A stretch of DNA of 64,000 nucleotides from contig JACKPC010000001.1 in the NCBI GenBank assembly GCA_024233835.1, forward strand, positions 1,669,442 through 1,733,441, in the 5' to 3' direction. Below are positions 1-12,728 of this stretch, piece by piece. The notes beneath the pieces are model-generated. The model searched no databases. It was not told where the DNA came from and saw only the letters and a program-made list of their open reading frames with translations. This DNA comes from Leptospiraceae bacterium (GTDB taxonomy: Bacteria; Spirochaetota; Leptospiria; Leptospirales; Leptospiraceae). Numbering within the stretch: the stretch's first letter is position 1; the number at the start of each line of letters is the position of its first letter. The position numbers and the translations under genes were made by a program.

Positions 1-319
1 TTTAATCAATTTAAATAAAAAGTAAAAACTCAGTGAAAGACGATTTATAGAAGTTAAGGTATATAGGAAAATAATAAATATTGAATATATAGAAATGAAA
101 AAATTTTTTTATAAGAAACTACTATAATATAAAGAGGGTCTATCATCAATTATAAAGCAATAGTTTTAATAGATTTTGCTACTTGACTTTTATTTTAAAA
201 AATATGAATAGGATTGGAAAATTATTAGCACAGAACTATTTGGCTCGCACTTTCCTCAGGAGTCTTCGTCGTTTCAGTTTTTGATCTGCCAGGGCAAATA
301 CTGGTTCTACTACCAAAAA

Positions 320-401
320 GGGATACACTAAGGAAACCTGCTGTAAGTCCTGCACTAATGGCGAAGCTTTTTAAAAATAGAAGTTTGAATCTGCGTTTCA
401 T
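320..401 (-). pseudogene. 5' remnant (about 27 codons, MKRRFKLLF...AGLTAGFLSVSL) of the secreted tail-fibre-like paralog family, then diverges into unrelated sequence
   Basis: Nucleotide identity to the 5' ends of the 2582..3274, 5421..6278 and 6352..7056 genes, including the conserved leader immediately upstream (402-470). The reading frame diverges after about 80 nt. Confidence 0.5.
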
Positions 402-477
402 TTTCCTGTCCTTGTTTGATTATTTGAGTATTACTATATATTACCTGTTTCTTATTCTTTGCCCTTTTTTCTCTTTA

Positions 478-600
478 AGGAGTAACGCTGAATGAGATAC
501 CATCCAGATTAATATGAGTAGCAGTAGTAGTAGCTTTTAAATCAAGATACACCCCCAAACTATAAACATTCAGTTTATGAGAAAAACCATGGAGGAAGCT
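478..600 (-). pseudogene. 3' remnant of the same paralog family (matches the last ~40 codons of the 6352..7056 copy)
   Basis: About 110 nt almost identical to 6352-6470 (ggagtaacRctgaaYga...cagtttatgagaaaaaccat). The match ends abruptly at ~600, next to the hipA stop. Confidence 0.45.
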
Positions 601-680
601 TTTACTCAGGCTCATTAGCAGAGGTTGAAACCTGCCGGTACTAGTATACTATGATTTTTGTATTTTTGTAAAGATTATTT

Positions 681-1961
681 TTATCCATTCGGGTTTTTAA
701 TTATTTGGGTATGCTTGCTTATTTCTTCAAAGATATATGGATTGAAAATCTGATTTGTTTCCAAAAGTATTTTATCAATTTTTTTTATTCCAGAGTTTAT
801 GCATATACTTTCCCATTCACTTTCTATTGTCTGAATCATTGCTCTGATTATCTCTATACTTTCCTCTTCTGATAGCAAATAGTTTTTAGATGAAGATAAA
901 CAATTAATTAATAGACTTCTATTATCCTGTCCGATGATTTTCATTGCCTGTCCTGCCATACTTCCACTTCTGGGTTGAGGACAAATATCATAAGCAGGTG
1001 TAAGCTTATATTTTTCTCCATCCCAAAAAGCAGCATGATTTCTGGCATGATCATCCGTATTCCCTACAAGAATATTAAAAACTAATCGTTTAAATAATTC
1101 TTTTAGAGTATTTTTAGGTGAAGAAAACTTATGGCGAATCAATAAAGCAAAATCTTCGTAGCTTGCATAACGTGCTTCCATTTCATGTAAATTTAAAAGA
1201 GTCAGGGCGGATAACATTAATTTTCTCGTCCATGATTCCCCAACCCTCTTTCTATCAAATCTTTTAACTAAAAGCACATCTTTATTTAACGAACTTTCTA
1301 ATTGAACATCAGCCACATCAATACCACATTTTTTAGCCAGCTTCATTACAATATATTCAGCTCGAATTATATCATAATAATCATCACTACTCGAAAATTT
1401 AGCGATGAATTTTTGATTAGAACTATTTATAAAAACTTTAGGTCTGGCTCCACCTATACTTGTTCCATGTAGCAAAGCCAATGTTAAATCATAATTAAGT
1501 TTTTTACCCTCTTCAATATAACTAACCGCTTCTAATAAATCTTTTAGTTTTATATCATTCTGTAATCTTGCGATATAATGTTCCGAACTTTCTTGAAAGT
1601 CCAATGCACCGATTCTATCTGAGCCGGACTTTAGAAAAAAAGTAATTTCATCCAGTTCATCATATTTATCTGAAATCATACCTGAGTTATAAAGTGCATG
1701 CAGAATGACTCTCCTTCCCCAGGCATCAGGGCTTGCATCTCGAAGACAAGAGGCTATGTTATGTTTGGGAGAAAAGGTTCCTTTTATCAATGGTAGCTCT
1801 TCGGGAAATATTGCAATAGCCTTTGGGTTGGAAAGGTAAGATTGACCGTAGGTAAAATAATATTTTTCATTTACATTTTGAACAACACCTGCAACAGTAG
1901 GACTTGCTTCTTGTGGTAAGAAAATCCAGACGAAGGCTTTATCCTTAGAAGTTGTCATCAA
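681..1961 (-). CDS. hipA: HipA-family serine/threonine kinase toxin (type II toxin-antitoxin)
   Basis: 426 aa. HipA C-terminal signature GNTDDHARNHAAFWDGEKYKLTPAYD (the family consensus is GNxDDHxKNFS...LSPAYD). It has an N-terminal HipA-N-like region and overlaps the upstream HTH gene by 17 nt, the usual hipBA arrangement. Confidence 0.85.
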   Translation of the reverse strand: MMTTSKDKAFVWIFLPQEASPTVAGVVQNVNEKYYFTYGQSYLSNPKAIAIFPEELPLIKGTFSPKHNIASCLRDASPDAWGRRVILHALYNSGMISDKYDELDEITFFLKSGSDRIGALDFQESSEHYIARLQNDIKLKDLLEAVSYIEEGKKLNYDLTLALLHGTSIGGARPKVFINSSNQKFIAKFSSSDDYYDIIRAEYIVMKLAKKCGIDVADVQLESSLNKDVLLVKRFDRKRVGESWTRKLMLSALTLLNLHEMEARYASYEDFALLIRHKFSSPKNTLKELFKRLVFNILVGNTDDHARNHAAFWDGEKYKLTPAYDICPQPRSGSMAGQAMKIIGQDNRSLLINCLSSSKNYLLSEEESIEIIRAMIQTIESEWESICINSGIKKIDKILLETNQIFNPYIFEEISKHTQIIKNPNG

Positions 1962-2268
1962 GGTTCACATCCTTTGAATGAACTTTAGAAGGTAAAAGAG
2001 AAAGAGTTTCTTTGTTCTGTTCCAATAACCTTAGAAATTCTGTTCTGGACTCAGTAAAAAGAGAAACCTGTAAAATAACTGCTGTTTCAAAATACTTTCC
2101 TATAGCAATGGAAGGCTCTCCTTTCAGTATACCCTGTAAAGTAGAACGAGCAACACCCAGTCTTTCTGCGAGTTCCTTTTGTGAAATCTTTTGTTTTCGT
2201 CTTTCTTTTTCTAAAATTTGTGAAAAAAGAGTAAGAGCTTCATTTGCTAAAGGAGATAAGTTTTTCAT
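1945..2268 (-). CDS. hipB: XRE-family HTH DNA-binding antitoxin (HipB-like)
   Basis: 107 aa with the HTH motif ISQKELAERLGVARSTLQGIL. It lies directly upstream of hipA and overlaps it. Confidence 0.75.
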   Translation of the reverse strand: MKNLSPLANEALTLFSQILEKERRKQKISQKELAERLGVARSTLQGILKGEPSIAIGKYFETAVILQVSLFTESRTEFLRLLEQNKETLSLLPSKVHSKDVNLDDNF

Positions 2269-2299
2269 AATGTGACCTATATATCAGTCATATTATAGG

Positions 2300-2480
2300 G
2301 TTATGTCCAAAATATCAAGCATATTTTTAATTACAGGTAGCTCCATTATCAAATGTAACCCAATTTGTGCCATTGCAGTAGCAGGGCTTACTCATCGAAG
2401 CTTGACAAGAGAGACACTCATCACACCAAGACAAAAGGACATGCCGATGATAAAAGGTTTCAAAAAGGCTTTATCTAGGA
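2300..2480 (-). pseudogene. Degraded 5' remnant of a tail-fibre-like paralog (residual ...SVSL... hydrophobic anchor) preceded by the family's conserved leader at 2481-2540
   Basis: The conserved leader sequence (tgtttgtctatttgagtatt...tacctgtttcttattcc) lies at 2488-2535. It is followed on the minus strand by ATG and a short ORF (MSFCLGVMSVSLVKLR*) that retains the SVSL segment of the family N-terminus. Confidence 0.3.
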
Positions 2481-2581
2481 ATGGTGGCTTGTTTGTCTAT
2501 TTGAGTATTCCAATATATTACCTGTTTCTTATTCCTTATCGCAATCAACATTGATGCTTATGGATATCCTCTCACTTCATA

Positions 2582-3274
2582 TCAAGGCGAGGTACTGAAC
2601 TGAATTACATCTAATTCAGCGTAGATTGAGTTCGCGCTAGCCCCGATTTTTACAGTACCATCAGTCCCAATAATATCCACCCGGTGGACGGCATTGCCGG
2701 TATGGGCAATCACCGGATAAGATACTACTCCATATGGCCTATAACCGGCAGGTAAGGTCAAAATAATATCATCGGTAGCAAAATTGCTGCCTGTTTTAAT
2801 GGCAAGGCCTCTCATATAGACTATATCCCCAATTTTTCGATATTGGCATTTGATCCAGCCGATGTTAGCACAAGATACCCCAGAACCTAAGGATGTTACA
2901 TCTATCCAGGGTACATTCCATGATATATTACCATTCACATCCAACTTTTCCGCTGGACTACTCGTCCCAATACCCACATTACCATCGGTATAAACCGCAT
3001 CTGTTGTGGTAGTTCCCTTCATCCAATTCGGGATACCTTCAATGGCAGTTTTGATAACATTGATACCGTTACCGATATTATTCAAATCGGTAGATGTCAG
3101 GGTTGAACCGGAAGTCCAGTCGGTTTTTACACTGACATTATTTACAGCGATTGCCAGAAGGGAGACACTAAGGAAACCTGCTGTAAGTCCTGCACCAATT
3201 ACCAGGCTTTTAAAAAAAAGTCTTATACTAATGGCGAAGTTTTTTATAAATAGAAGTTTGAATCTGCGTTTCAT
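2582..3274 (-). CDS. Secreted/membrane-anchored tail-fibre-like repeat protein, paralog A (230 aa)
   Basis: N-terminal signal/anchor MKRRFKLLFIK...AGLTAGFLSVSLLAIAV, then TDWTSGSTLTSTDLNNIGNGI and the DGNVGIGTSSPAEKLDVNG motif typical of phage tail-fibre-type domains. The C-terminal module (CQYRKIGDIVYMRGL...) is shared with 6352..7056. Confidence 0.6.
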   Translation of the reverse strand: MKRRFKLLFIKNFAISIRLFFKSLVIGAGLTAGFLSVSLLAIAVNNVSVKTDWTSGSTLTSTDLNNIGNGINVIKTAIEGIPNWMKGTTTTDAVYTDGNVGIGTSSPAEKLDVNGNISWNVPWIDVTSLGSGVSCANIGWIKCQYRKIGDIVYMRGLAIKTGSNFATDDIILTLPAGYRPYGVVSYPVIAHTGNAVHRVDIIGTDGTVKIGASANSIYAELDVIQFSTSP

Positions 3275-3345
3275 GTCCTTGTCCTTGTTTGACTATTTTA
3301 TTATTTTTATATAGTACCTGTTTCTTATTCATTGTCCTCCACATC
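3275..3345 (-). promoter_or_regulatory. Conserved leader/promoter region of the tail-fibre-like paralog family (AT-rich TATATAAAAATAAT box, AGGACAAGGAC RBS before the ATG)
   Basis: The same ~60 nt block lies immediately 5' of each copy or remnant (402-470, 2481-2540, 3275-3340, 6279-6340, 7057-7120). Confidence 0.35.
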
Positions 3346-3429
3346 CACTCTATGGGATAAGTCTCAGACCTGTTGTTACAATGATTGTGCTTTTCTGTTT
3401 TTTACTGCAAGGATATTTTTAATAGGGAA

Positions 3430-4007
3430 CTATATCATCCACCAGGGTAAAGCGAGAATTTCCTCGGTGATTAAATATGGTTTTTCGCAGGTACAAACTA
3501 TCAGTCCTTTTCCTTTTTCTTGTTCTGGAATAGATGAATAAAAAGAATGAATTCCACGTGCATCGTTTTTAGAAGGATAAGAAGTTAGCTTAACTTCAAT
3601 TGGGTAAAGTTTGCCTCTAAACTCTAAAATTAAGTCTACTTCAGCTCCTGCCTGCGTTCTATAATGATACAGTCCCAGAAATAAGGACATAGTTTTTAGG
3701 TTCTTTAATATTTCCATAACAACATACGTTTCAAATAGTTTTCCCTTCATGGGATGATTCATAATGCTTTCGGGTGAGCCTATTTTTTGAAGTTCACATA
3801 TTATACCTGTATCTGTAAAATATCCTTTTCTTTTCTTGCACCGGAAATATCCTGAACAGGATCAAAGGTAACCGTCTGTAAATTGCCCCTAAAAACTGTT
3901 TCTATCAGAGTAGATTTGCATACCTGTCTGGCTCCCTGCAAGCAAACCACCGGAAAATACTTAAAAAGTTTCTGTAATTTGGTTTCAATCAAGCGATTAG
4001 CATACAT
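3430..4007 (-). pseudogene. Disrupted AAA ATPase (AAA_14 + DUF4143 family): N-terminal Walker A piece (3801..4007) and C-terminal DUF4143 piece (3430..3762), with the middle missing
   Basis: The 68 aa ORF has ...LQGARQVCKSTL (Walker A-like). The 110 aa ORF has a DUF4143-like C-terminus (HYRTQAGAEVDLILEFRGKLYPIEVK). Both are homologous to the intact 396 aa neighbour at 4181..5371, but together they give under 180 aa with an intervening gap. Confidence 0.65.
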
Positions 4008-4180
4008 TTATCTTGCATTATGGCAGTTATAATAGCCATTTTGCAAGGTAAAAGAGCGAAACTGTCTTTTCAGAGGGAAATAGGAAAACAAGAACTTTTT
4101 GGTTTTTTATTTCTATGACAATACTGACTCGCAGCATAACCATTTTTTAGCAAAATTTATAGTAAAAATTAATATTATCC

Positions 4181-5371
4181 TTGAAATTTCGGATGCCATG
4201 TTCCTATAATTCAAGTATTATGAAAATTGAACGGATTCATGAAAAGCAAAATATTGAAAAGCTATTTAAGATATTTCCAGCCGTTAGTATATTGGGTCCG
4301 AGACAATGCGGAAAAACGACTCTTGCCAGAGATTTTGGTGCCGATCACTTCTTTGATCTGGAAAATCCTACTGATTGGCAAATCATGGAAAACCCTGAAC
4401 TAAATCTTGGCATTTTGGAAGGAACCATTGCGATTGACGAAATCCAGAGAAAGCCAGATTTATTTCCCATTCTAAGACACCTGATAGATACAAAGCCCAA
4501 ACAAAAATATTTACTGTTAGGAAGTGCGTCACCTCTACTTATCAAACAAACTTCAGATTCTCTAGCAGGAAGAATTGGGTATCACTCCTTAGGAGGTTTT
4601 AACCCAAAAGATTTAGCACAAGAAGATTTAAAACAATTGTGGGTTCGAGGCGGTTTTCCAAGAGCTTTTTTAGCTGATAGTGATGATAGCTCTTTTTTAT
4701 GGAGGGAAAACTATATTCGAACCTTTTTAGAGAGAGACATACCTCAACTTGGCATTCAAATTCCGGCAAATACGATACGTAGGTTCTGGACAATGCTTTC
4801 TCATTACCATTCCCAAATTTTAAACTATTCAGAGTTTTCCCGTTCCTTTGGAGTTTCCGACAAGACCGTTCGCAATTATTTAGAAATACTCGAAGGAACA
4901 TTTATGGTCAGGGTTCTACAACCCTGGTATGAGAACATAGGCAAAAGGTTAACAAAGAAACCAAAACTTTATTTCACCGATTCAGGAATCTACCATTACT
5001 TTTCATCTCTACAGGATTGGAATGACGTTATTTCTTCACCCCGCCTTGGTGCTTCTTACGAGGGTTATGTGGTGGAAAACATCATTCGCATTTCTGGAAT
5101 ACCGGAGAGAAATTTCTACTATTGGAGAACCCATGCAGGTTCAGAACTGGATTTGTTCTGGCAATACAAAGGTAAAAACTATGGAGTAGAAATCAAATAC
5201 CTCGATGCTCCCAAAACCACCAAGTCCATGCACTCTGCACTAAAAGACTTAAATCTGGAAAAACTGTATGTTATCTACCCGGGAAATAAAAGCTATTTAT
5301 TGGCAGAAAAAATCATTGTTCTACCCTTCCATGAAGTTAATAAAGAGTTATGGTTTGTTTCAAATGTGTAA
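4181..5371 (+). CDS. AAA+ ATPase, AAA_14 N-terminal domain + DUF4143 C-terminal domain (COG1373-like)
   Basis: 396 aa with Walker A GPRQCGKTTL, Walker B-like IAIDEIQ, and a C-terminus ending WRTHAGSELDLFW (DUF4143 pattern). The start may be an internal Met (MKIERI...). Confidence 0.85.
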   Translation: MKFRMPCSYNSSIMKIERIHEKQNIEKLFKIFPAVSILGPRQCGKTTLARDFGADHFFDLENPTDWQIMENPELNLGILEGTIAIDEIQRKPDLFPILRHLIDTKPKQKYLLLGSASPLLIKQTSDSLAGRIGYHSLGGFNPKDLAQEDLKQLWVRGGFPRAFLADSDDSSFLWRENYIRTFLERDIPQLGIQIPANTIRRFWTMLSHYHSQILNYSEFSRSFGVSDKTVRNYLEILEGTFMVRVLQPWYENIGKRLTKKPKLYFTDSGIYHYFSSLQDWNDVISSPRLGASYEGYVVENIIRISGIPERNFYYWRTHAGSELDLFWQYKGKNYGVEIKYLDAPKTTKSMHSALKDLNLEKLYVIYPGNKSYLLAEKIIVLPFHEVNKELWFVSNV

Positions 5372-5420
5372 CAAGCGATTCTTTCTTAATTGATCGCTTT
5401 TTTATTTCCTTTAAATTAAC

Positions 5421-6278
5421 TCAAAAACATAAAATAAACCAATTGATTCGACCTGTACCAGAAGTTCCACCTGATATATTAGTTTTAAAACTGTTGGTAT
5501 CAATACTTTCTGAACCAACAATGTTAAACGGATTTGCTGAAGGATGGCCATTTGTTGCAAAGATCATTTGTAGTAAAGGACAATTGATATTTCTATTATG
5601 GGTTATAGTATTAAATGAATCAGGAGCAATTGTTATAACAGCACTACCAGAATATGCCAACTTTAAAGATCCGTTCACTTCAAGCTTAGCTGTTGGAGTA
5701 GTTGTTCCAATACCGACATTGCCGGTATCATGCTCCATAAATAAAACATTAGTCCAAGTTGTGTCAGCATGAAATGCAAAAATGAAATCTTCTTTCTCGG
5801 TAGTGAATTGAGAGTTGAATCCTCGGGCTGAAAAATGCCAGCCGTATTTACCATTTTCTGAAATTGGCACACCGCCTGTCGGCCGGGTAGCAAAATTCAA
5901 AGATGATTGTGACTCTATTTCAGTGTTGCTGTTTTCAATTTGTATCCCACCATGACCCTTAACATTAGCATCAATAACTAATTTGTACCCGGGACTTGCT
6001 GTCCCGATGCCCACATTGCCATCGTTAAAAACTGCGTCTGTTGTGGTAGTTCCCTTTGTCCAGTTCGGAATGCCCTCAAGTGCTGTTTTGATAGCCTGGA
6101 TACCGCTACCGATGTTATTCAACTCGGTGGATGTCAGGCTGGAACCGGAAGTCCAGTCGGTTTTTACACTGACATTATTTACAGCGATTGCCAGAAGGGA
6201 TACACTTAAAAATCCTGCGGTAATTCCTGAACTAATAGCGAAGCTTTTTATAAATAGAAGTTTAAATCTGCGTTTCAT
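5421..6278 (-). CDS. Secreted tail-fibre-like repeat protein, paralog B (285 aa, two GNVGIGT motifs, distinct central/C-terminal module)
   Basis: Same N-terminal 70 aa module as the paralogs. Motifs DGNVGIGTASPGYKL and TGNVGIGTTTPTAKLEVNG. The upstream leader is conserved. Confidence 0.6.
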   Translation of the reverse strand: MKRRFKLLFIKSFAISSGITAGFLSVSLLAIAVNNVSVKTDWTSGSSLTSTELNNIGSGIQAIKTALEGIPNWTKGTTTTDAVFNDGNVGIGTASPGYKLVIDANVKGHGGIQIENSNTEIESQSSLNFATRPTGGVPISENGKYGWHFSARGFNSQFTTEKEDFIFAFHADTTWTNVLFMEHDTGNVGIGTTTPTAKLEVNGSLKLAYSGSAVITIAPDSFNTITHNRNINCPLLQMIFATNGHPSANPFNIVGSESIDTNSFKTNISGGTSGTGRINWFILCF

Positions 6279-6351
6279 GTCCTTGTCCTTGTTTGTCTAT
6301 TTGAGTATTACTATATATTACCTGTTTTTAATTCCTTACATGTTTTTCTAT

Positions 6352-7056
6352 TTAAGGAGTAACACTGAACGATATACCATCCAGATTAATATGAGTAGCA
6401 GTAGTATTAGCTTTTAAATCAAGATACACCCCATTACTATAAACATTCAGTTTATGAGAAAAACCATCAGTAGTTCCATGTGCCGGAACGGAAAAAGATA
6501 TTGCTTTAGGAGGTAAATATTCGGAAGGCAGGTTAATGATCATTTCATTATTAGCCAGGGCAGTGGATTTCGTTGCTAAACCCCTGAGGTAAACAATGTC
6601 TCCAATTTTTCGATACTGACAGCGTTGCCAGCCGCTATCTATAGTGCTGAAATTGCTGTAACCAGTTCCGAAGGTTGTTACATCTGTCCAGGGTACATTC
6701 CATGATATATTGCCGTTCACATCCAACTTTTGTGCTGGACTACTTGTCCCAATACCCACATTGCCACCGTTAAAAACTGCATCTGTTGTAGTAGTTCCCT
6801 TTGTCCAATTCGGGATACTTTCCAGCAAGGTTTTTATAGTATTGATACCGTTACCGATGTTATTCATCTCGGTGGCTGTCAGGCTGGAACCGGAAGTCCA
6901 GTCGGTTTTTACTGTGACGTTATTTACAGCGATTGCCAGAAGGGATACACTTAAGAATCCTGCTGTAAGTCCTGCACTGATTGCGAAGCTTTTTAAAAAA
7001 AGTCTTACACTAATGGCGAAGCTTTTTATAAACAAAAGTTTAAATCTGCGTTTCAT
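6352..7056 (-). CDS. Secreted tail-fibre-like repeat protein, paralog C (234 aa)
   Basis: N-terminal module nearly identical to the other paralogs. GNVGIGTSSPAQKLDVNGNISWNVPW motif. C-terminal module CQYRKIGDIVYLRGL... as in paralog A. Confidence 0.6.
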   Translation of the reverse strand: MKRRFKLLFIKSFAISVRLFLKSFAISAGLTAGFLSVSLLAIAVNNVTVKTDWTSGSSLTATEMNNIGNGINTIKTLLESIPNWTKGTTTTDAVFNGGNVGIGTSSPAQKLDVNGNISWNVPWTDVTTFGTGYSNFSTIDSGWQRCQYRKIGDIVYLRGLATKSTALANNEMIINLPSEYLPPKAISFSVPAHGTTDGFSHKLNVYSNGVYLDLKANTTATHINLDGISFSVTP

Positions 7057-7258
7057 GTCCTTGTCCTTATTTGAGTATTTTATTATTTTTCTATAGTACC
7101 TATTTCTTATTCATTGTCCTGCTGCACCGACGACTGAAAGGAGGAGAGCACAGCGTGGAGTGAGTTCAAAAAAAAATTTCGTTCTTAGAATTCAGATAGG
7201 CTTTCCTCATTAATTATATTATATATTTGATTTTTTCAGATAAATTAGAATACATATC

Positions 7259-7828
7259 TCATTTCTTTATCTCGTAGTGCAATAACACTATCCCACTACT
7301 ATAGGTATTTGCATTTTTTAGCTCTAATTTTTGCCAATTGGTAAATTCTTGAAAAGCGGAAATACCCTTCCCAATAGCAATAGGATTAACAAAAAAATGA
7401 AACTCGTCAATTAAACCTCCCTTAACCAGAGAGGAAACAAAGGAACTACCACCATAGACTATGATATCTTTACCTTCCTGATTTTTAAGTTTGTTGACTT
7501 CCTCTTTTAGATTTCCTTTTGCGAGTTCTACATTATCCCATGGAGATTTGTCTAGTGTCTTTGTAAAAACAATTTTCTTTTGTTTGGCTTTAATTAGGGC
7601 AGCTTCATACATTGGGTCTTCTGGTTTTTTACAAGTATCAAGCCAATAGGGTATATAATCAATCGCTAATTTTCTACCTAATAGCTCTGTATCTGCTGAA
7701 GCTGCCAAATCAAGAACATAATGTTTGATTTCTTCATATGCCCAGGTTACCCATTTTTGTTCATCATTGGGTCCTGTTGAATTAAATCCATCTAAGGAAA
7801 CTTGCATTTGTAGTTTAAGTTTTTTCAT
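7259..7828 (-). CDS. Dihydrofolate reductase-family protein (RibD C-terminal domain type)
   Basis: 189 aa matching the RibD_C/DHFR-like family pattern (MKKL...MQVSLDG...LLGRK...IIVYGGSS....LIDEFHFFVNPIAIGKG). Confidence 0.7.
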   Translation of the reverse strand: MKKLKLQMQVSLDGFNSTGPNDEQKWVTWAYEEIKHYVLDLAASADTELLGRKLAIDYIPYWLDTCKKPEDPMYEAALIKAKQKKIVFTKTLDKSPWDNVELAKGNLKEEVNKLKNQEGKDIIVYGGSSFVSSLVKGGLIDEFHFFVNPIAIGKGISAFQEFTNWQKLELKNANTYSSGIVLLHYEIKK

Positions 7829-8327
7829 AATTATTCCTTAATTAATTAAAGTTTATCAATGGTTCGTTTTCGGAACGAAGTGAAGGAAACACAATCTTAT
7901 ACCCTCTATAATAAAAGAAAAAATCATATGTATCCAAATTTTAAAGTGTCTATCTTCACTTTACTTCAAAAAAAATTTTATATTTCATGTAAATATTTAT
8001 GTAGTAAATACTCGTATGTTGCTAAAAGACCGCACTCAGCACTACGTCATGTACGCTTGGGTGTATCGGAGTTTTACCACATTTTTATATCTTACCAACA
8101 CTTATTTTAAAAAGACAACAAAAAAAGGAAAAGCGAAAGTGAAAAATTACTTTACTAAACACTATGCAAAACTCCTATCTACCGCCCTCTCAGGAATTCA
8201 TGATTTTAAAAGAATATATCACACAAAAAAGACAGAGTGAGGGTGATTGTTAGATACCGATTTTTAGCCTGGAGAAAAAGGAAGATTTACTTGACTTAAA
8301 ATCCGCATAGTATCAAACTATCCACCT

Positions 8328-8613: not shown

Positions 8614-8743
8614 TACAGCAATTCCCGCTTTGCTTGTAACAGGCAGATAAGGCTAAGATTTTTGGGTTTGCAGGGAATGCTTTCGTAAACTTTTTCATCA
8701 AAAATCGCTTGTACCTGTACAGGGATATAGTCTTTTTGACTAT

Positions 8744-9442
8744 ATGTCAGGCAAAAACGAGTTACACGCACGGGTAGATTTATCAGCAGATGGACTTTAT
8801 CAAGCAATTCGGGAGGAATTTTCTAAAATTCCAGACCACAGGGTCAATCCTTCGATTTCTCTAACAGATGCTTTGATGTCAGCCTTTGCTATCTTTTTTC
8901 AAAAGAACGCATCACTTCTTGAGTTTGAAAGAGAAAAAGTGAAGAATAAAAATCTTCAAAGTATATACAAGATTCAAGAGATACCTTCTGACACTCAAAT
9001 GAGAGAAATTGTTGATGAAGTTTCAACAGGAGCTTTCAGGAAAATATATAAAAACCTTTTTTCAAAACTTCAGCGTGGCAAGGTTCTCGAATCTTATCGT
9101 GTCCTTGATGATTATTATATTCTTTCCGGAGACGGAACCGGATTCTTCTCTTCAGAGAAAATTCATTGTGAATGCTGTCTTATAAAGAATAATAAAAGTG
9201 GAACTCTTTACCAGCATATGATGTATGGTGCCTGTATTGTGCATCCGGATAAGAAAGAAGTTATCCCTCTTATGTTTGAACCTATTACAAACGAAGATGG
9301 GAAAACAAAAAATGATTGTGAGTTAAACGCTTCTAAACGATTTATTGAAGATTTTAGAAGAGAGCATCCTCATTTAAAAACAATATTTGTAGAGGATTCT
9401 CTGTTTTCAAATGCTCCCCACATTGAATTACTGAGAGTATAA
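8744..9442 (+). CDS. DDE transposase, N-terminal part (split ORF)
   Basis: 232 aa ending at TAA. It continues conceptually in the next ORF, which is in a different frame. Confidence 0.65.
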   Translation: MSGKNELHARVDLSADGLYQAIREEFSKIPDHRVNPSISLTDALMSAFAIFFQKNASLLEFEREKVKNKNLQSIYKIQEIPSDTQMREIVDEVSTGAFRKIYKNLFSKLQRGKVLESYRVLDDYYILSGDGTGFFSSEKIHCECCLIKNNKSGTLYQHMMYGACIVHPDKKEVIPLMFEPITNEDGKTKNDCELNASKRFIEDFRREHPHLKTIFVEDSLFSNAPHIELLRV

Positions 9443-9464
9443 GCAAGTTGATAAGAAAGAGCAT

Positions 9465-9863
9465 ATGATTGCTTTTAGCTGGGTTACAGATATTGAAATT
9501 ACAAAAGAAAATGCTTATGAATTGATGCGAATCGCGAGAGCACGATGGAAGATAGAAAATGAAACCTTCAATACTCTAAAAAATCAGGGTTATCACTTTG
9601 AACATAATTATGGACATGGCAGTAAGGATTTGTCTAATAACTTTGCAACTCTTATGATACTTGCTTTTCTTGTAGATCAGATCCAACAATCAAGCTGTGC
9701 ATTATTCCGAAAAGCACTTGGGACTTTTCATGCAAAAAGATTGTTCTGGCAAAAGATAAGAAGCTTATTTGAAATATTTGAATTTTCATCTATGGAAGAG
9801 CTATTCCAGGCCATTGCTTATGGATTTAAAGCAAATATTTCTATAGGACAAAATTCATCATAG
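9465..9863 (+). CDS. DDE transposase, C-terminal part with the ARARWKIENETFNTLK motif (the YxxRWxIExxF signature of IS4/IS5-type transposases)
   Basis: 132 aa. It is separated from the N-terminal part by a stop and a frame change, so it is either inactivated or a sequencing frameshift. Confidence 0.65.
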   Translation: MIAFSWVTDIEITKENAYELMRIARARWKIENETFNTLKNQGYHFEHNYGHGSKDLSNNFATLMILAFLVDQIQQSSCALFRKALGTFHAKRLFWQKIRSLFEIFEFSSMEELFQAIAYGFKANISIGQNSS

Positions 9864-10755
9864 CGAGACTTTTAAAAACAGTGAAAGATTTTCTGAAGGA
9901 GCTATTCATTCATTTTTCCTTGTACTAATTTCACTATGATTTTATCTCAACTTTTACTATACATAAGTATTTTGGGTTTTTTTCCTCGAAGGAAATCCGG
10001 AAGTTATGGGTTAAAAAACAGGCTTAAAGAAGCCTTGTACTCTAAAGCGGGAATTGCTGATGCCAACACAGAGATAACACTGAGTTCCGGAAACAAGCCC
10101 CTTTATCTGCTTCTGAAGAACTAAAGTTAGTTATCAAGAAAAGTCAGGATCGACTTACTTCTAACAAACTATACAGAGAACAAAATATCACCTTAACCGA
10201 TACAGACATTAATAATCTAACTAATATTATGGTGGATATGAACCAATTAAATGATATTTCTGTAAATACTAACGACATTGTTCAGCTATTTGAATTAACA
10301 AAAGATGACCTCAGTGCCTTGAAAATTGCTTCGACAATGAGCTTAAAGCAGATAAATACTTTAGCGACAACAGCTTGTGTTCTTTCTGAAAATAGAGGTG
10401 ATATATGGAGTTGGTTATATAATGTTATTTATTTGATAACACACTGTGCAGGTTTATGATAGGATTACTATATGAAGATATTAAAATATACAATTCCTTT
10501 CATACTTTTGCTTCTGATGCAGTGTTATAATGGTAAGCAAGTTGATGATACTCTGAAGTATTTTTGTTCAGCTAATTTTTTGAATGCACAGACACAGAAA
10601 GAGAAAGATTTTATACTTCTTTCATGTGTAAACTATTTTTTGGACAGGCAAAGATTGAATGATTCAAAAAAAATAAAGTAAAAAGCACTGGTATTGCTAA
10701 GAGCTTGTGATTCCACTTCCAAACAAGCTCTTGGGTAGTGGGTAGAATTCTAAAA

Positions 10756-10810
10756 TATGAAACGCTTACATTCTGCTATCGATTATGTTGCCCCTTACGA
10801 CGTGATAAAC
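10756..10810 (+). pseudogene. Tiny remnant of an IS3-family transposase C-terminus (KRLHSAIDYVAPYDV)
   Basis: The motif resembles the conserved IS3 OrfB C-terminal ...HSSLGYLSP.E.. signature. Only about 18 codons are recognisable. Confidence 0.3.
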
Positions 10811-11054
10811 TGTAAACGAGAGAGAATACTTTCTGAAAGAAGAGAGAAGCTAAAGTTGGGTAAAGAGAAGAGAAAGCAATTTTTTCAGACAAGCCCTAAA
10901 AAGAAAGGGTCTTGTCTTACTCAAATCCCGTAATGGGAGTTTTAAGAAAGTGCAGTTTTGTAAATTTGCACTGCGACTTTATGCGAAAATACTATTACTT
11001 GTTTAAATTTTTACCCACCTTATTTCGGGACTAAAAAAGTCCGGTTTTGAAAGA

Positions 11055-11102
11055 TGAAAAAGCTTGACTTAAAATCCGCATAGTATCAAAATTTGTTCTG
11101 TT
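11055..11102 (+). promoter_or_regulatory. Conserved upstream element with a TTGACT -35-like hexamer shared by three Uma2-like paralogs
   Basis: cTTGACTtaaaatccgcatagtatcaaa occurs at 8290-8318, 11063-11091 and 11930-11958 (one substitution in the last copy), each about 35 nt before the ATG. Confidence 0.35.
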
Positions 11103-11870
11103 ATGGAAACAGAGTGTGTTGAACTGCAAATTCCCCGGCAGTATAGGCTTACAGATGAAGTAATCAAAATCCTGCAAATTCTAAACCATGACTTAATCAT
11201 AGATTTTGTAAAAGAAAATGGTGTGATTATAAAGCCAAAAACCCCGGAATTTGCAGGCCAGAAATACATCGATCTGAAGTTTCCTGAGGACTTTTTTCAT
11301 CCGGAAAACTTCGATGAACTTTATGAAGCCAATGAGCACCGGTTTCGGTTTGAACGGGTAGGGGAGACGATACGAATAAAAATGGGTTTTGGAAGTATAA
11401 TTGGTTTAATCACAGCAGCGATTGTTAGCTCCCTTTACATCTGGGCAAAAAAGACAAAGTCAGGAAGAGTGCGTTCAGATCAATCCGAATTTGAGTTTTA
11501 TAATGAAGAAACAGAAAGCCTTGAAAAAAGAATTCCCGATGTTTCTTATATTAGTTTTGAAAAGGTAAATGAAAAGGAACAAAAATCATGGGGCACAGGA
11601 AAGATTAAAGTTGCACCTACTCTGAGTATTGAAATAGTTTCTTCCAAATATGGCCTGAAGCCCGCTCTCTGGAAAATGCAACATGTATGGATGCAGTTCG
11701 GAACTGATATTGGAGTTGTAGTCTGTCCCTTTTCGAAAAAGCTGTACATTTTTGAGAAAGGTAAATCGAACCATATAGAACAAAGCATTTATCACAAGTT
11801 TACCCATACCCTCCTTCCCGACTATGAAGGTGATTTCAGCGAATATGTAGATGAAATAAGTGAATCCTGA
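11103..11870 (+). CDS. Membrane-anchored Uma2-family (PD-(D/E)XK-like) protein, paralog 1 (255 aa)
   Basis: N-terminal ~95 aa domain, one predicted TM helix (IIGLITAAIVSSLYIWA), and a C-terminal region with Uma2-like motifs (VSYISF...APTLSIEIVSSKYGLKPALWKMQ..MQFGTDIGVVVCPFSKKLYIF). Confidence 0.6.
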   Translation: METECVELQIPRQYRLTDEVIKILQILNHDLIIDFVKENGVIIKPKTPEFAGQKYIDLKFPEDFFHPENFDELYEANEHRFRFERVGETIRIKMGFGSIIGLITAAIVSSLYIWAKKTKSGRVRSDQSEFEFYNEETESLEKRIPDVSYISFEKVNEKEQKSWGTGKIKVAPTLSIEIVSSKYGLKPALWKMQHVWMQFGTDIGVVVCPFSKKLYIFEKGKSNHIEQSIYHKFTHTLLPDYEGDFSEYVDEISES

Positions 11871-11969
11871 GACTTGTATCTTAGGGATTAGGATGTGCTC
11901 AGGTTAAAGCCGGTTTTGAAAGATGAAAAAGCTTGACTATAAATTCGCATAGTATCAAACTATCCACCT

Positions 11970-12728
11970 ATGAACAGTGATTGTTTGGAGCTTTATCTTC
12001 CCCTTACATGCAGAGTGAGCGATGATGTCTTGCAGGCAATTCAACGATTAAACCATGACCTCATTATTGACCTGAGAAAAGAAAACGGTATCGGGATCCG
12101 GGTTACAGATGATTTATCCGAACAAAAATATATTGAGCTAAGATTTCCCGAAGGATTCATTCCTGCCGAAAACTTTGAGGAGCTTACAAGTAACAGAGAT
12201 AAGCTGTACTTTGAACAAAAAGGGGAGACGATTTTTATAAAAATGGGAACGATTTATACAATTGGTTTAATTACTATGGCAATCGGAGCCTCCCTGTACA
12301 TGTGGGCCAAAAAAAATAAAACCGGTAGAGTTTTACCCGAAAATTCTACCTATCAGTTGAGCGATTCTAAAACCGGTAAAACCGAAATCAGGATGGCAGA
12401 TATTTCCTATATCAGTTATGGGAAAGCTTCCGAGTCGGAGCAAAAAAAATGGGGGAAAAATTGTCCCATCGCTCCTACACTCAGCATTGAAATAGTTTCT
12501 TCCAAATATGGCCTGAAGCCCGCTCTCTGGAAAATGCAATATGTATGGATGCAGTTCGGAACTGATATTGGAGTTGTAGTCTGTCCCTTTTCGAAAAAGC
12601 TGTACATTTTTGAGAAAGGTAAATCGAACCATATAGAACAAAGCATTTATCACAAGTTTACCCATACCCTCCTTCCCGACTATGAAGGTGATTTCAGCGA
12701 ATATGTAGATGAAATAAGTGAATCCTGA
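11970..12728 (+). CDS. Membrane-anchored Uma2-family protein, paralog 2 (252 aa)
   Basis: Same architecture as paralog 1. The last ~245 nt are identical to paralog 1 apart from one substitution, while the 5' two-thirds are diverged. Confidence 0.6.
   Translation: MNSDCLELYLPLTCRVSDDVLQAIQRLNHDLIIDLRKENGIGIRVTDDLSEQKYIELRFPEGFIPAENFEELTSNRDKLYFEQKGETIFIKMGTIYTIGLITMAIGASLYMWAKKNKTGRVLPENSTYQLSDSKTGKTEIRMADISYISYGKASESEQKKWGKNCPIAPTLSIEIVSSKYGLKPALWKMQYVWMQFGTDIGVVVCPFSKKLYIFEKGKSNHIEQSIYHKFTHTLLPDYEGDFSEYVDEISES

Follow-up and report, generated by a model that had tools for sequence, protein, structure and literature searches.

A hipBA toxin-antitoxin module among truncated genes of a tail-fibre-like paralog array in a Leptospiraceae bacterium

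Introduction

In an uncultured Leptospiraceae lineage (assembly GCA_024233835.1, contig JACKPC010000001.1), a hipBA toxin-antitoxin (TA) module lies within a small array of paralogous genes, with a piece of such a gene on either side. Has the module taken the place of the interior of one array gene, as an original prediction made from the bare sequence proposed, or does it sit among the remains of two? We address this question using a 64,000-nt stretch of the contig (positions 1,669,442 to 1,733,441 of the forward strand), which we refer to as the window and within which all coordinates below are counted. In the reading that we favour, and that we hold to be probable though far from certain, hipBA together with approximately 90 and 166 nt of flanking DNA took the place of one gene's body and of the head of the following gene, or lies between two independently eroded genes; it would not occupy the interior of a single gene. 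This reading builds on the organisation of the array and on the two points at which homology to the array breaks off.

Organisation of the paralog array

All paralogs lie on the minus strand. Three copies are intact and are accompanied by one N-terminal stub, called pB', and one C-terminal fragment, which is described together with the flanks of hipBA below. The features of the array are:

318-401, minus strand: pB' stub, codons 1-28 of a pB-type gene and then unrelated sequence (tblastn, 89% identity to pB aa 1-28)
411-461, minus strand: pB' leader of the second-gene class, 88% identical to the pB leader and to the leader at 2488-2538
2582-3274, minus strand: pA, intact first-position paralog of 230 aa, 62% aa identity to pC
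5421-6278, minus strand: pB, intact second-position paralog
6352-7056, minus strand: pC, intact first-position paralog
3284-3334, 6288-6338 and 7066-7116: remaining leaders in the array, 51 nt each

Every paralog copy is preceded by a leader of 51 nt. Within the window there are exactly five matches to the leader pattern, all of them in the array, and none of the other loci that were fetched contains it. The leaders, which may be promoters, 5' UTRs or recombination sites, are conserved as much as, or more than, the paralog coding regions, and they fall into two classes. Those of pA and pC make up the first-gene class (92% mutual identity); a leader of this class heads a unit and follows non-paralog DNA. 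The leaders of pB, pB' and the stub next to hipBA make up the second-gene class, with 88-92% mutual identity and 73-86% identity to the first class, and each of them starts 13-43 nt past the stop codon of a pA/pC-type gene. Read from gene order and leader similarity, the array consists of units of two genes, the first of pA/pC type and the second of pB type, in which each position carries its own leader class.

Flanks of hipBA and breakpoints

The module is found between pA and the pB' leader. In order of increasing coordinate, the segment contains:

478-590, minus strand: 3' remnant, the last 37 codons and stop of a pC-type (first-position) paralog
591-680: junction of 90 nt separating the 3' remnant from the hipA stop, with no significant paralog similarity
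681-1958, minus strand: hipA, intact, encoding a predicted Ser/Thr kinase toxin of 425 aa
1945-2268, minus strand: hipB, encoding a 107-aa helix-turn-helix (HTH) protein, the predicted antitoxin/autorepressor (HTH_3, E 1e-9)
2269-2321, minus strand: putative promoter/operator of hipBA, from a promoter scan and conservation in relatives
2322-2403, minus strand: segment of 82 nt that separates the putative hipBA promoter from the stub, with no paralog similarity
~2404-2487, minus strand: degenerate N-terminal stub of a second-position paralog, signal-peptide-like, with protein-level evidence only
2488-2538, minus strand: leader of this stub, second-gene class, 51 nt, starting 43 nt after the pA stop

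On the hipA side, a 3' remnant had been predicted at 478-600. It is indeed present and its true extent is 478-590. These 113 nt are 93.8% identical to the 3' end of pC (6355-6467), the 37 encoded residues are 94.6% identical (tblastn E 3e-17), and the remnant scores 28.8 bits against a hidden Markov model (HMM) of the family C-terminus. Further, the block 318-590 is colinear with 6195-6467, that is the end of pC, the following leader and the start of pB, over 273 nt at 89% identity. Paralog homology breaks sharply at 590/591. The 90 nt between this point and the hipA stop showed no significant similarity to the paralogs, either as DNA, which did not score above shuffled sequence, or in HMM comparison. 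An extension of the remnant to approximately 650 through the out-of-frame string ILVPAGFNL, which resembles the family motif LP.G[FY]RP, was considered and rejected, as its HMM match was not significant.

On the hipB side, a degraded 5' remnant plus leader had been predicted at 2300-2540, and part of this can be retained. The leader is found at 2488-2538 and is 92% identical to the pB leader and 75% identical to the pC leader. A second sharp homology break follows at 2487/2488, 9 nt ahead of the expected ATG. Beyond the break, the stub at ~2404-2487 could be recognised as protein: when its frame, which ends in KAFLKPFIIGMSFCLGVMSVSLVKLR and a stop, was compared with an HMM built from the N-termini of the paralogs, the score was 11.4 bits, and none of 1000 shuffles scored as high. 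The stub lacks a start codon and is terminated after 31 codons. As DNA, 2269-2487 is no closer to any paralog than shuffled sequence. The remainder of the predicted 5' remnant could not be upheld, since 2322-2403 is without family similarity and 2269-2321 is the putative hipBA promoter/operator. A further candidate, a VKLR..LP similarity in the junction on this side, was not significant and was set aside.

Most of a 47-codon open frame (2330-2470, minus strand), ending in CYCNGTNWVTFDNGATCN and a stop, is contained in 2322-2403. It gave borderline matches (E 8e-6 to 9e-4) to a Y-x-NGTNWV(-x-x-DNG) repeat of three repetitive beta-rich proteins, and the Y-x-NGTNWV motif is absent from all paralog loci fetched. 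Possibly the frame is what is left of a different gene for a surface or tail-fibre-like protein. Junction DNA had no match in the window, in the loci of hipBA relatives or in other loci.

The sharp breaks at 590/591 and 2487/2488 indicate that array sequence was lost or replaced at the site of the module. The abrupt fall in identity at both breaks, from 92-94% to barely detectable, would also fit the import of a pre-interrupted allele from a donor Leptospiraceae in which hipBA lay within a divergent family member, with homologous crossovers at the leader (2488) and at the pC-type 3' end (590). Family-like traces do occur just inside the breaks, namely the N-terminal stub, which is significant as protein, and faint VYLRGL..LP-like and LPAGF-like strings. 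However, apart from the stub these traces are not statistically significant and no donor-like sequence was found, and we regard such an import as the least credible of the explanations weighed here. The reading in which two neighbouring array genes were affected draws instead on the identity of the two pieces.

One gene or two

The original prediction took the two flanking pieces to be halves of one paralog whose interior had been replaced by the TA module. What stands of this is that the module lies in the array between truncated pieces that end in sharp breaks. The pieces themselves do not appear to derive from one gene. The stub leader belongs to the second-gene class and directly follows pA, which points to the stub as the partner of pA, and the 3' remnant is a pC-type and thus first-gene end, after which come a leader of the second-gene class and the pB' stub. 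The pieces also differ widely in divergence, with 94% DNA identity for the 3' remnant and approximately 42% for the coding part of the stub. In addition, second-gene stubs exist without an adjacent TA module, both at 318-401 and at another locus in this species (L019), where a pA/pC-type gene (P0126) has behind it an N-terminal relic of 23 nt and the relic of a DUF4143 pseudogene. On these grounds we favour an origin from two genes. The earlier observation is largely right, though confirmed only in part, and the earlier interpretation is partly supported.

The same evidence bears on the proposal that hipBA replaced the interior of one paralog, with the stub and its leader (2404-2538) and the 3' fragment (478-590) as the two ends. 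Both fragments do lie on the same strand, in the correct order and orientation around hipBA, and recombination within the conserved 5' region could produce a gene that joins a pB-class head to a pC-type tail; a metagenome scaffold (L020), described below, contains a chimera of the reciprocal type. This scaffold is possibly a de Bruijn-graph artefact, as pA and pB share an identical stretch of 59 nt. A single-gene origin would moreover require an additional, prior recombination event, and it is at odds with the leader class and position of the stub, with the unequal divergence of the two ends and with the existence of like stubs that have no TA module beside them. Taken together, we consider it rather unlikely.

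Under the two-gene origin that we prefer, the simplest reconstruction of the array would read pA, pB'', pC', pB'. The hipBA segment would then take the place of the body of pB'', the spacer, the pC' leader and approximately the first 590 nt of pC'. As to the order of events, hipBA would most likely have entered by illegitimate recombination of horizontally acquired DNA, which we infer from the absence of a site-specific footprint. A search for short direct repeats or an integrase footprint at the flanks of hipBA had been proposed as a check; direct and inverted repeats flanking the module were found at chance level only, there is no integrase in 1-8000, and no tRNA was found. The transposase fragment nearest to hipBA, at ~8744-9863, is strain-specific.

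Stubs and relics at several places show that the array is eroding generally. This raises the alternative that hipBA is an older resident, or entered a spacer, and that the flanking fragments stem from later independent erosion or expansion of the array. Erosion is seen everywhere (the pB' stub, the relic at L019 and a DUF4143 ATPase pseudogene at 3430-4007), and the host-like composition of hipBA and the lack of insertion footprints are in keeping with long residence. On the other hand, both paralog homologies stop sharply within 90-220 nt of hipBA, the junction DNA is unlike any array spacer, and relatives of hipBA are never associated with the paralog family. This alternative is improbable in our view, and replacement across two genes, or a position between two eroded ones, remains our preferred account.

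Several points weigh against this account. The ancestral state was rebuilt from within-genome logic only, without a hipBA-free or syntenic relative. Leader class is perhaps not rigidly tied to the gene body, given the chimera of pA head and pB body on L020, itself possibly an assembly artefact. The coding part of the stub is far more diverged than its leader, which a simple recent truncation does not explain. Finally, a compositional sign of recent import is absent, the GC content being 33% for hipBA and 37% for the window.

Comparison with genomes lacking hipBA at this site had been proposed as a way of recovering the uninterrupted gene; the collections searched yielded neither an allele free of hipBA nor a syntenic relative. 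When the exact HipA and pA proteins were looked up, only the same arrangement was returned, on four contigs. A scan of genome contigs using the paralog alignment yielded only relatives of at most 51% identity, none with hipA close by, and the leader pattern had 0 matches in metagenome contigs. The flanking 811-aa lipoprotein had one relative, at 39% identity and without synteny, and in a homologue search with pC all matches above 63% identity came from the same species.

The hipBA module

The hipB-hipA pair itself was recognised correctly by the original prediction. The hipA open reading frame (ORF) spans 681-1961 on the minus strand, with the recorded protein beginning at the ATG at 1958, and the upstream hipB overlaps it by 14 nt. 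HipA_C (PF07804) matches HipA at E 9e-51 along the full profile (positions 1-213 of 213), and the N-terminal subdomain is matched by Couple_hipA (PF13657; E 1e-5, 26.2 bits at a cutoff of 22.5 bits), so that the protein is classed as HipA rather than HipT. Its GNTDDHARN (catalytic) and PAYD (Mg-binding) motifs align with solved HipT/HipA structures, the HipT structures carrying GNEDMHLKN and PAYD at these positions. HipA also contains GTSIGGARPK, which we take to be equivalent to the Gly-rich loop. The match of HipB to TIGR03070 couple_hipB falls below the cutoff (29 versus 71.65 bits), and the other NCBIfam equivalog cutoffs were not reached either (YjjJ NF007297, 45.3 versus 401 bits; HipB NF007271, 13.6 versus 79). 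This marks a member of the HipA family that is no equivalog of the named E. coli proteins.

Upstream of hipB, the promoter scan returned a promoter-like site at 2290-2318 with a -35 element TTGATA (2313-2318), a spacing of 17 nt and a -10 element TAATAT (2290-2295). An imperfect palindrome, TGACTGATATATAGGTCA, at 2273-2290 is a candidate operator. Of the three closest relatives, two (L017 and L021) have kept TGCTTGA and the candidate operator TGAYTRATATAT upstream of their hipB, and HipB is 57% identical to HipB of L017 (tblastx). With the putative promoter/operator extending up to 2321, the self-contained cassette would run from 681 to approximately 2321.

Judged from sequence features, hipB and hipA are an intact, canonical two-gene hipBA type II TA module, and by the criteria of the Hip-kinase phylogeny (PMC8262856) the present organisation counts as canonical hipBA. 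As in the modules of E. coli K-12, Shewanella oneidensis and Caulobacter and in the Hip tree's clades (PMC8262856), an HTH hipB lies upstream of and overlaps the gene for a HipA of ~425 aa, an N-subdomain is present, the full HipA_C core carries the GNxDDHxRN and YD motifs common to studied HipA proteins, and a palindromic operator putatively covers the promoter. The proteins are nevertheless distant from these: E. coli HipA is matched at E ~1e-7, and the closest relative in the database is 62% identical. The putative operator, of the TGAYTGATATATCARTCA type, also differs from that of E. coli hipBA, which is TATCCN8GGATA.

Relatives of hipBA and possible horizontal spread

More than 8000 HipA homologues were found. 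Identity drops from 100% to 62, 59 and 58% and then reaches a plateau at ~53% over unrelated phyla. An identical HipA is present in four assemblies; it is recorded as "HipA domain-containing protein [Leptospiraceae bacterium]", on a contig of 2.05 Mb, and the arrangement of hipBA and array is the same in four independent assemblies of the species. At the level of the whole locus, identity is 99.8% to a metagenome-assembled genome (MAG; GCA_020440905.1, contig JAGRNG010000003.1, L001) and 100% to three metagenome contigs.

The neighbours of the three closest hipBA modules are unrelated (a 640-aa ORF, a 323-aa ORF and a nucleotidyltransferase), and similarity to the paralogs or to the junctions is absent from these three loci (58-62% HipA identity). 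The original prediction had named two things that together would speak against it, hipBA in unrelated surroundings in related genomes and an independent decay of the flanking fragments; the first of these is seen in the three relatives, though they are distant. The patchy fall in identity together with the unrelated contexts fits horizontal spread of hipBA, and a patchy distribution is typical of horizontally moving TA modules (PMC7167474).

Possible stabilisation of the locus

It had also been suggested that the module might stabilise this variable locus. By analogy with the family (PMC8262856), a HipB2-HipA2 complex would repress the operon and neutralise HipA. Loss of HipB would free the HipA kinase, which would phosphorylate and thereby inactivate an aminoacyl-tRNA synthetase, its presumed target, and growth would be arrested (PMC8262856). 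Cells deleting hipBA would therefore be disfavoured, and the DNA between the 51-nt leader repeats at 411-461 and 2488-2538 could incidentally be protected from recombinational deletion. By analogy, it is plausible that hipBA stabilises the locus.

TA modules are described as stabilising variable chromosomal arrays and islands, with the cassettes of the Vibrio superintegron (Szekeres et al. 2007, cited in PMC7167474) and mosAT on SXT as examples. As in these systems, a TA pair lies in a repeat-rich, deletion-prone segment, and in the present case flanking direct repeats could mediate loss. In contrast to the Vibrio superintegron, the module is no cassette, as it is without an integron integrase or recognisable cassette recombination sites, and the array is tiny, with three intact genes. 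Unlike in either system, erosion of the surroundings is plain to see even though a TA module is present, and because neighbouring genes have decayed in this way the analogy is weak here.

A bolder version would see the array as a device for recombination-driven variation of secreted tail-fibre-like proteins in Leptospiraceae, with the leaders and the conserved 5' module as crossover sites and variable 3' bodies. hipBA would act as a lock: as it lies between two 51-nt leader repeats, a recombinational deletion removing it together with the stubs, which would serve as sequence donors, would be lethal or arresting. We consider this scheme highly unlikely. Should shuffling of variable 3' parts be demonstrated for the array, free-living spirochaetes would gain a modest new case of surface variation.

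Beyond annotation the finding matters little. It adds a divergent yet canonical HipBA from an uncultured Leptospiraceae lineage, and it describes a small array for tail-fibre-like surface or secreted proteins that erodes while gathering selfish and accessory genes (TA, DUF4143 ATPases and an insertion sequence (IS)). The hipBA insertion itself follows what has previously been reported of TA modules on chromosomes and is, as a phenomenon, ordinary.

The paralog proteins

The paralog proteins have in common a signal-like N-terminus and ~117 conserved residues, beyond which they diverge. They match tail-fibre/minor-tail PHROGs at E 1e-6 to 6e-9 (PHROG 3285, 1.7e-8; PHROG 9942, 6e-9). A Pfam-A scan of the paralogs gave no match, and a precomputed match to PF27455 YomR_C was only weak. 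A C-terminal domain of the form QYRKIGDIVYLRGL...LP.G[FY]RP...LDGISFS is common to the paralogs and their distant homologues. Like phage tail-fibre/minor-tail proteins with a YomR_C-like C-terminus (PHROG 3285, PHROG 9942, PF27455), the paralogs bear GNVGIGT..P..KL.V.G motifs. They differ from phage tail-fibre proteins in their N-terminal signal/anchor segment, in their short length (230-285 aa) and in their location, which is in tandem arrays on the chromosome and away from any phage genes.

Members of the family are also found in same-strand tandem arrays of other Leptospiraceae/Spirochaetota MAGs. Loci L006, L009, L011, L012 and L013 encode the same N-terminal module in tandem arrays of 3-5 genes, with no hipA close by and no leader of the type found in the window.

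The signal-like segment of pC (6976-7056) and pA (3194-3274) contains an 11-residue internal duplication (KLLFIKSFAIS / RLFLKSFAIS), which pB and pB' do not have. Long antisense ORFs of 83-144 aa on the plus strand (2303-2554, 3006-3314, 5983-6417 and 6710-7096) face every paralog 5' region. These ORFs share sequence only because the paralogs do and are probably not genes.

Other elements near the array

The metagenome scaffold L020 (ENA ERZ28655569 scaffold_17751) corresponds to window 2955-6236 and forms a near-closed cycle. Its gene P0127 is a clean single-crossover chimera in which the pA leader and N-terminus are joined to the pB body. P0127 has the DUF4143 pseudogene and the ATPase gene at its sides, which makes the scaffold a circular permutation of the chromosomal segment. 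Two origins are conceivable for L020: recombination between 5' regions of the paralogs, giving an excised circle or a tandem duplication, or an artefact of the de Bruijn graph; as the 59-nt identity of pA and pB could yield the same cycle in such a graph, its value as proof of recombination was downgraded.

Between the paralog units lie an intact AAA_14/DUF4143 ATPase gene (4181-5371, plus strand) and an inverted, fragmented second copy (3430-4007, minus strand). At L019, the relic of the DUF4143 pseudogene that follows P0126 is found at 726-856. This suggests that the DUF4143 ATPase is recurrently associated with the paralog family.

Further along the window, a segment of ~3.3 kb (8623-11932) has no counterpart in MAG contig L001, despite the 99.8% identity of the latter. 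The segment holds DDE transposase fragments (8744-9863) and a second copy of a Uma2-family nuclease gene (11103-11870) beside the one at 11970-12728, and is a strain-specific IS insertion or duplication.

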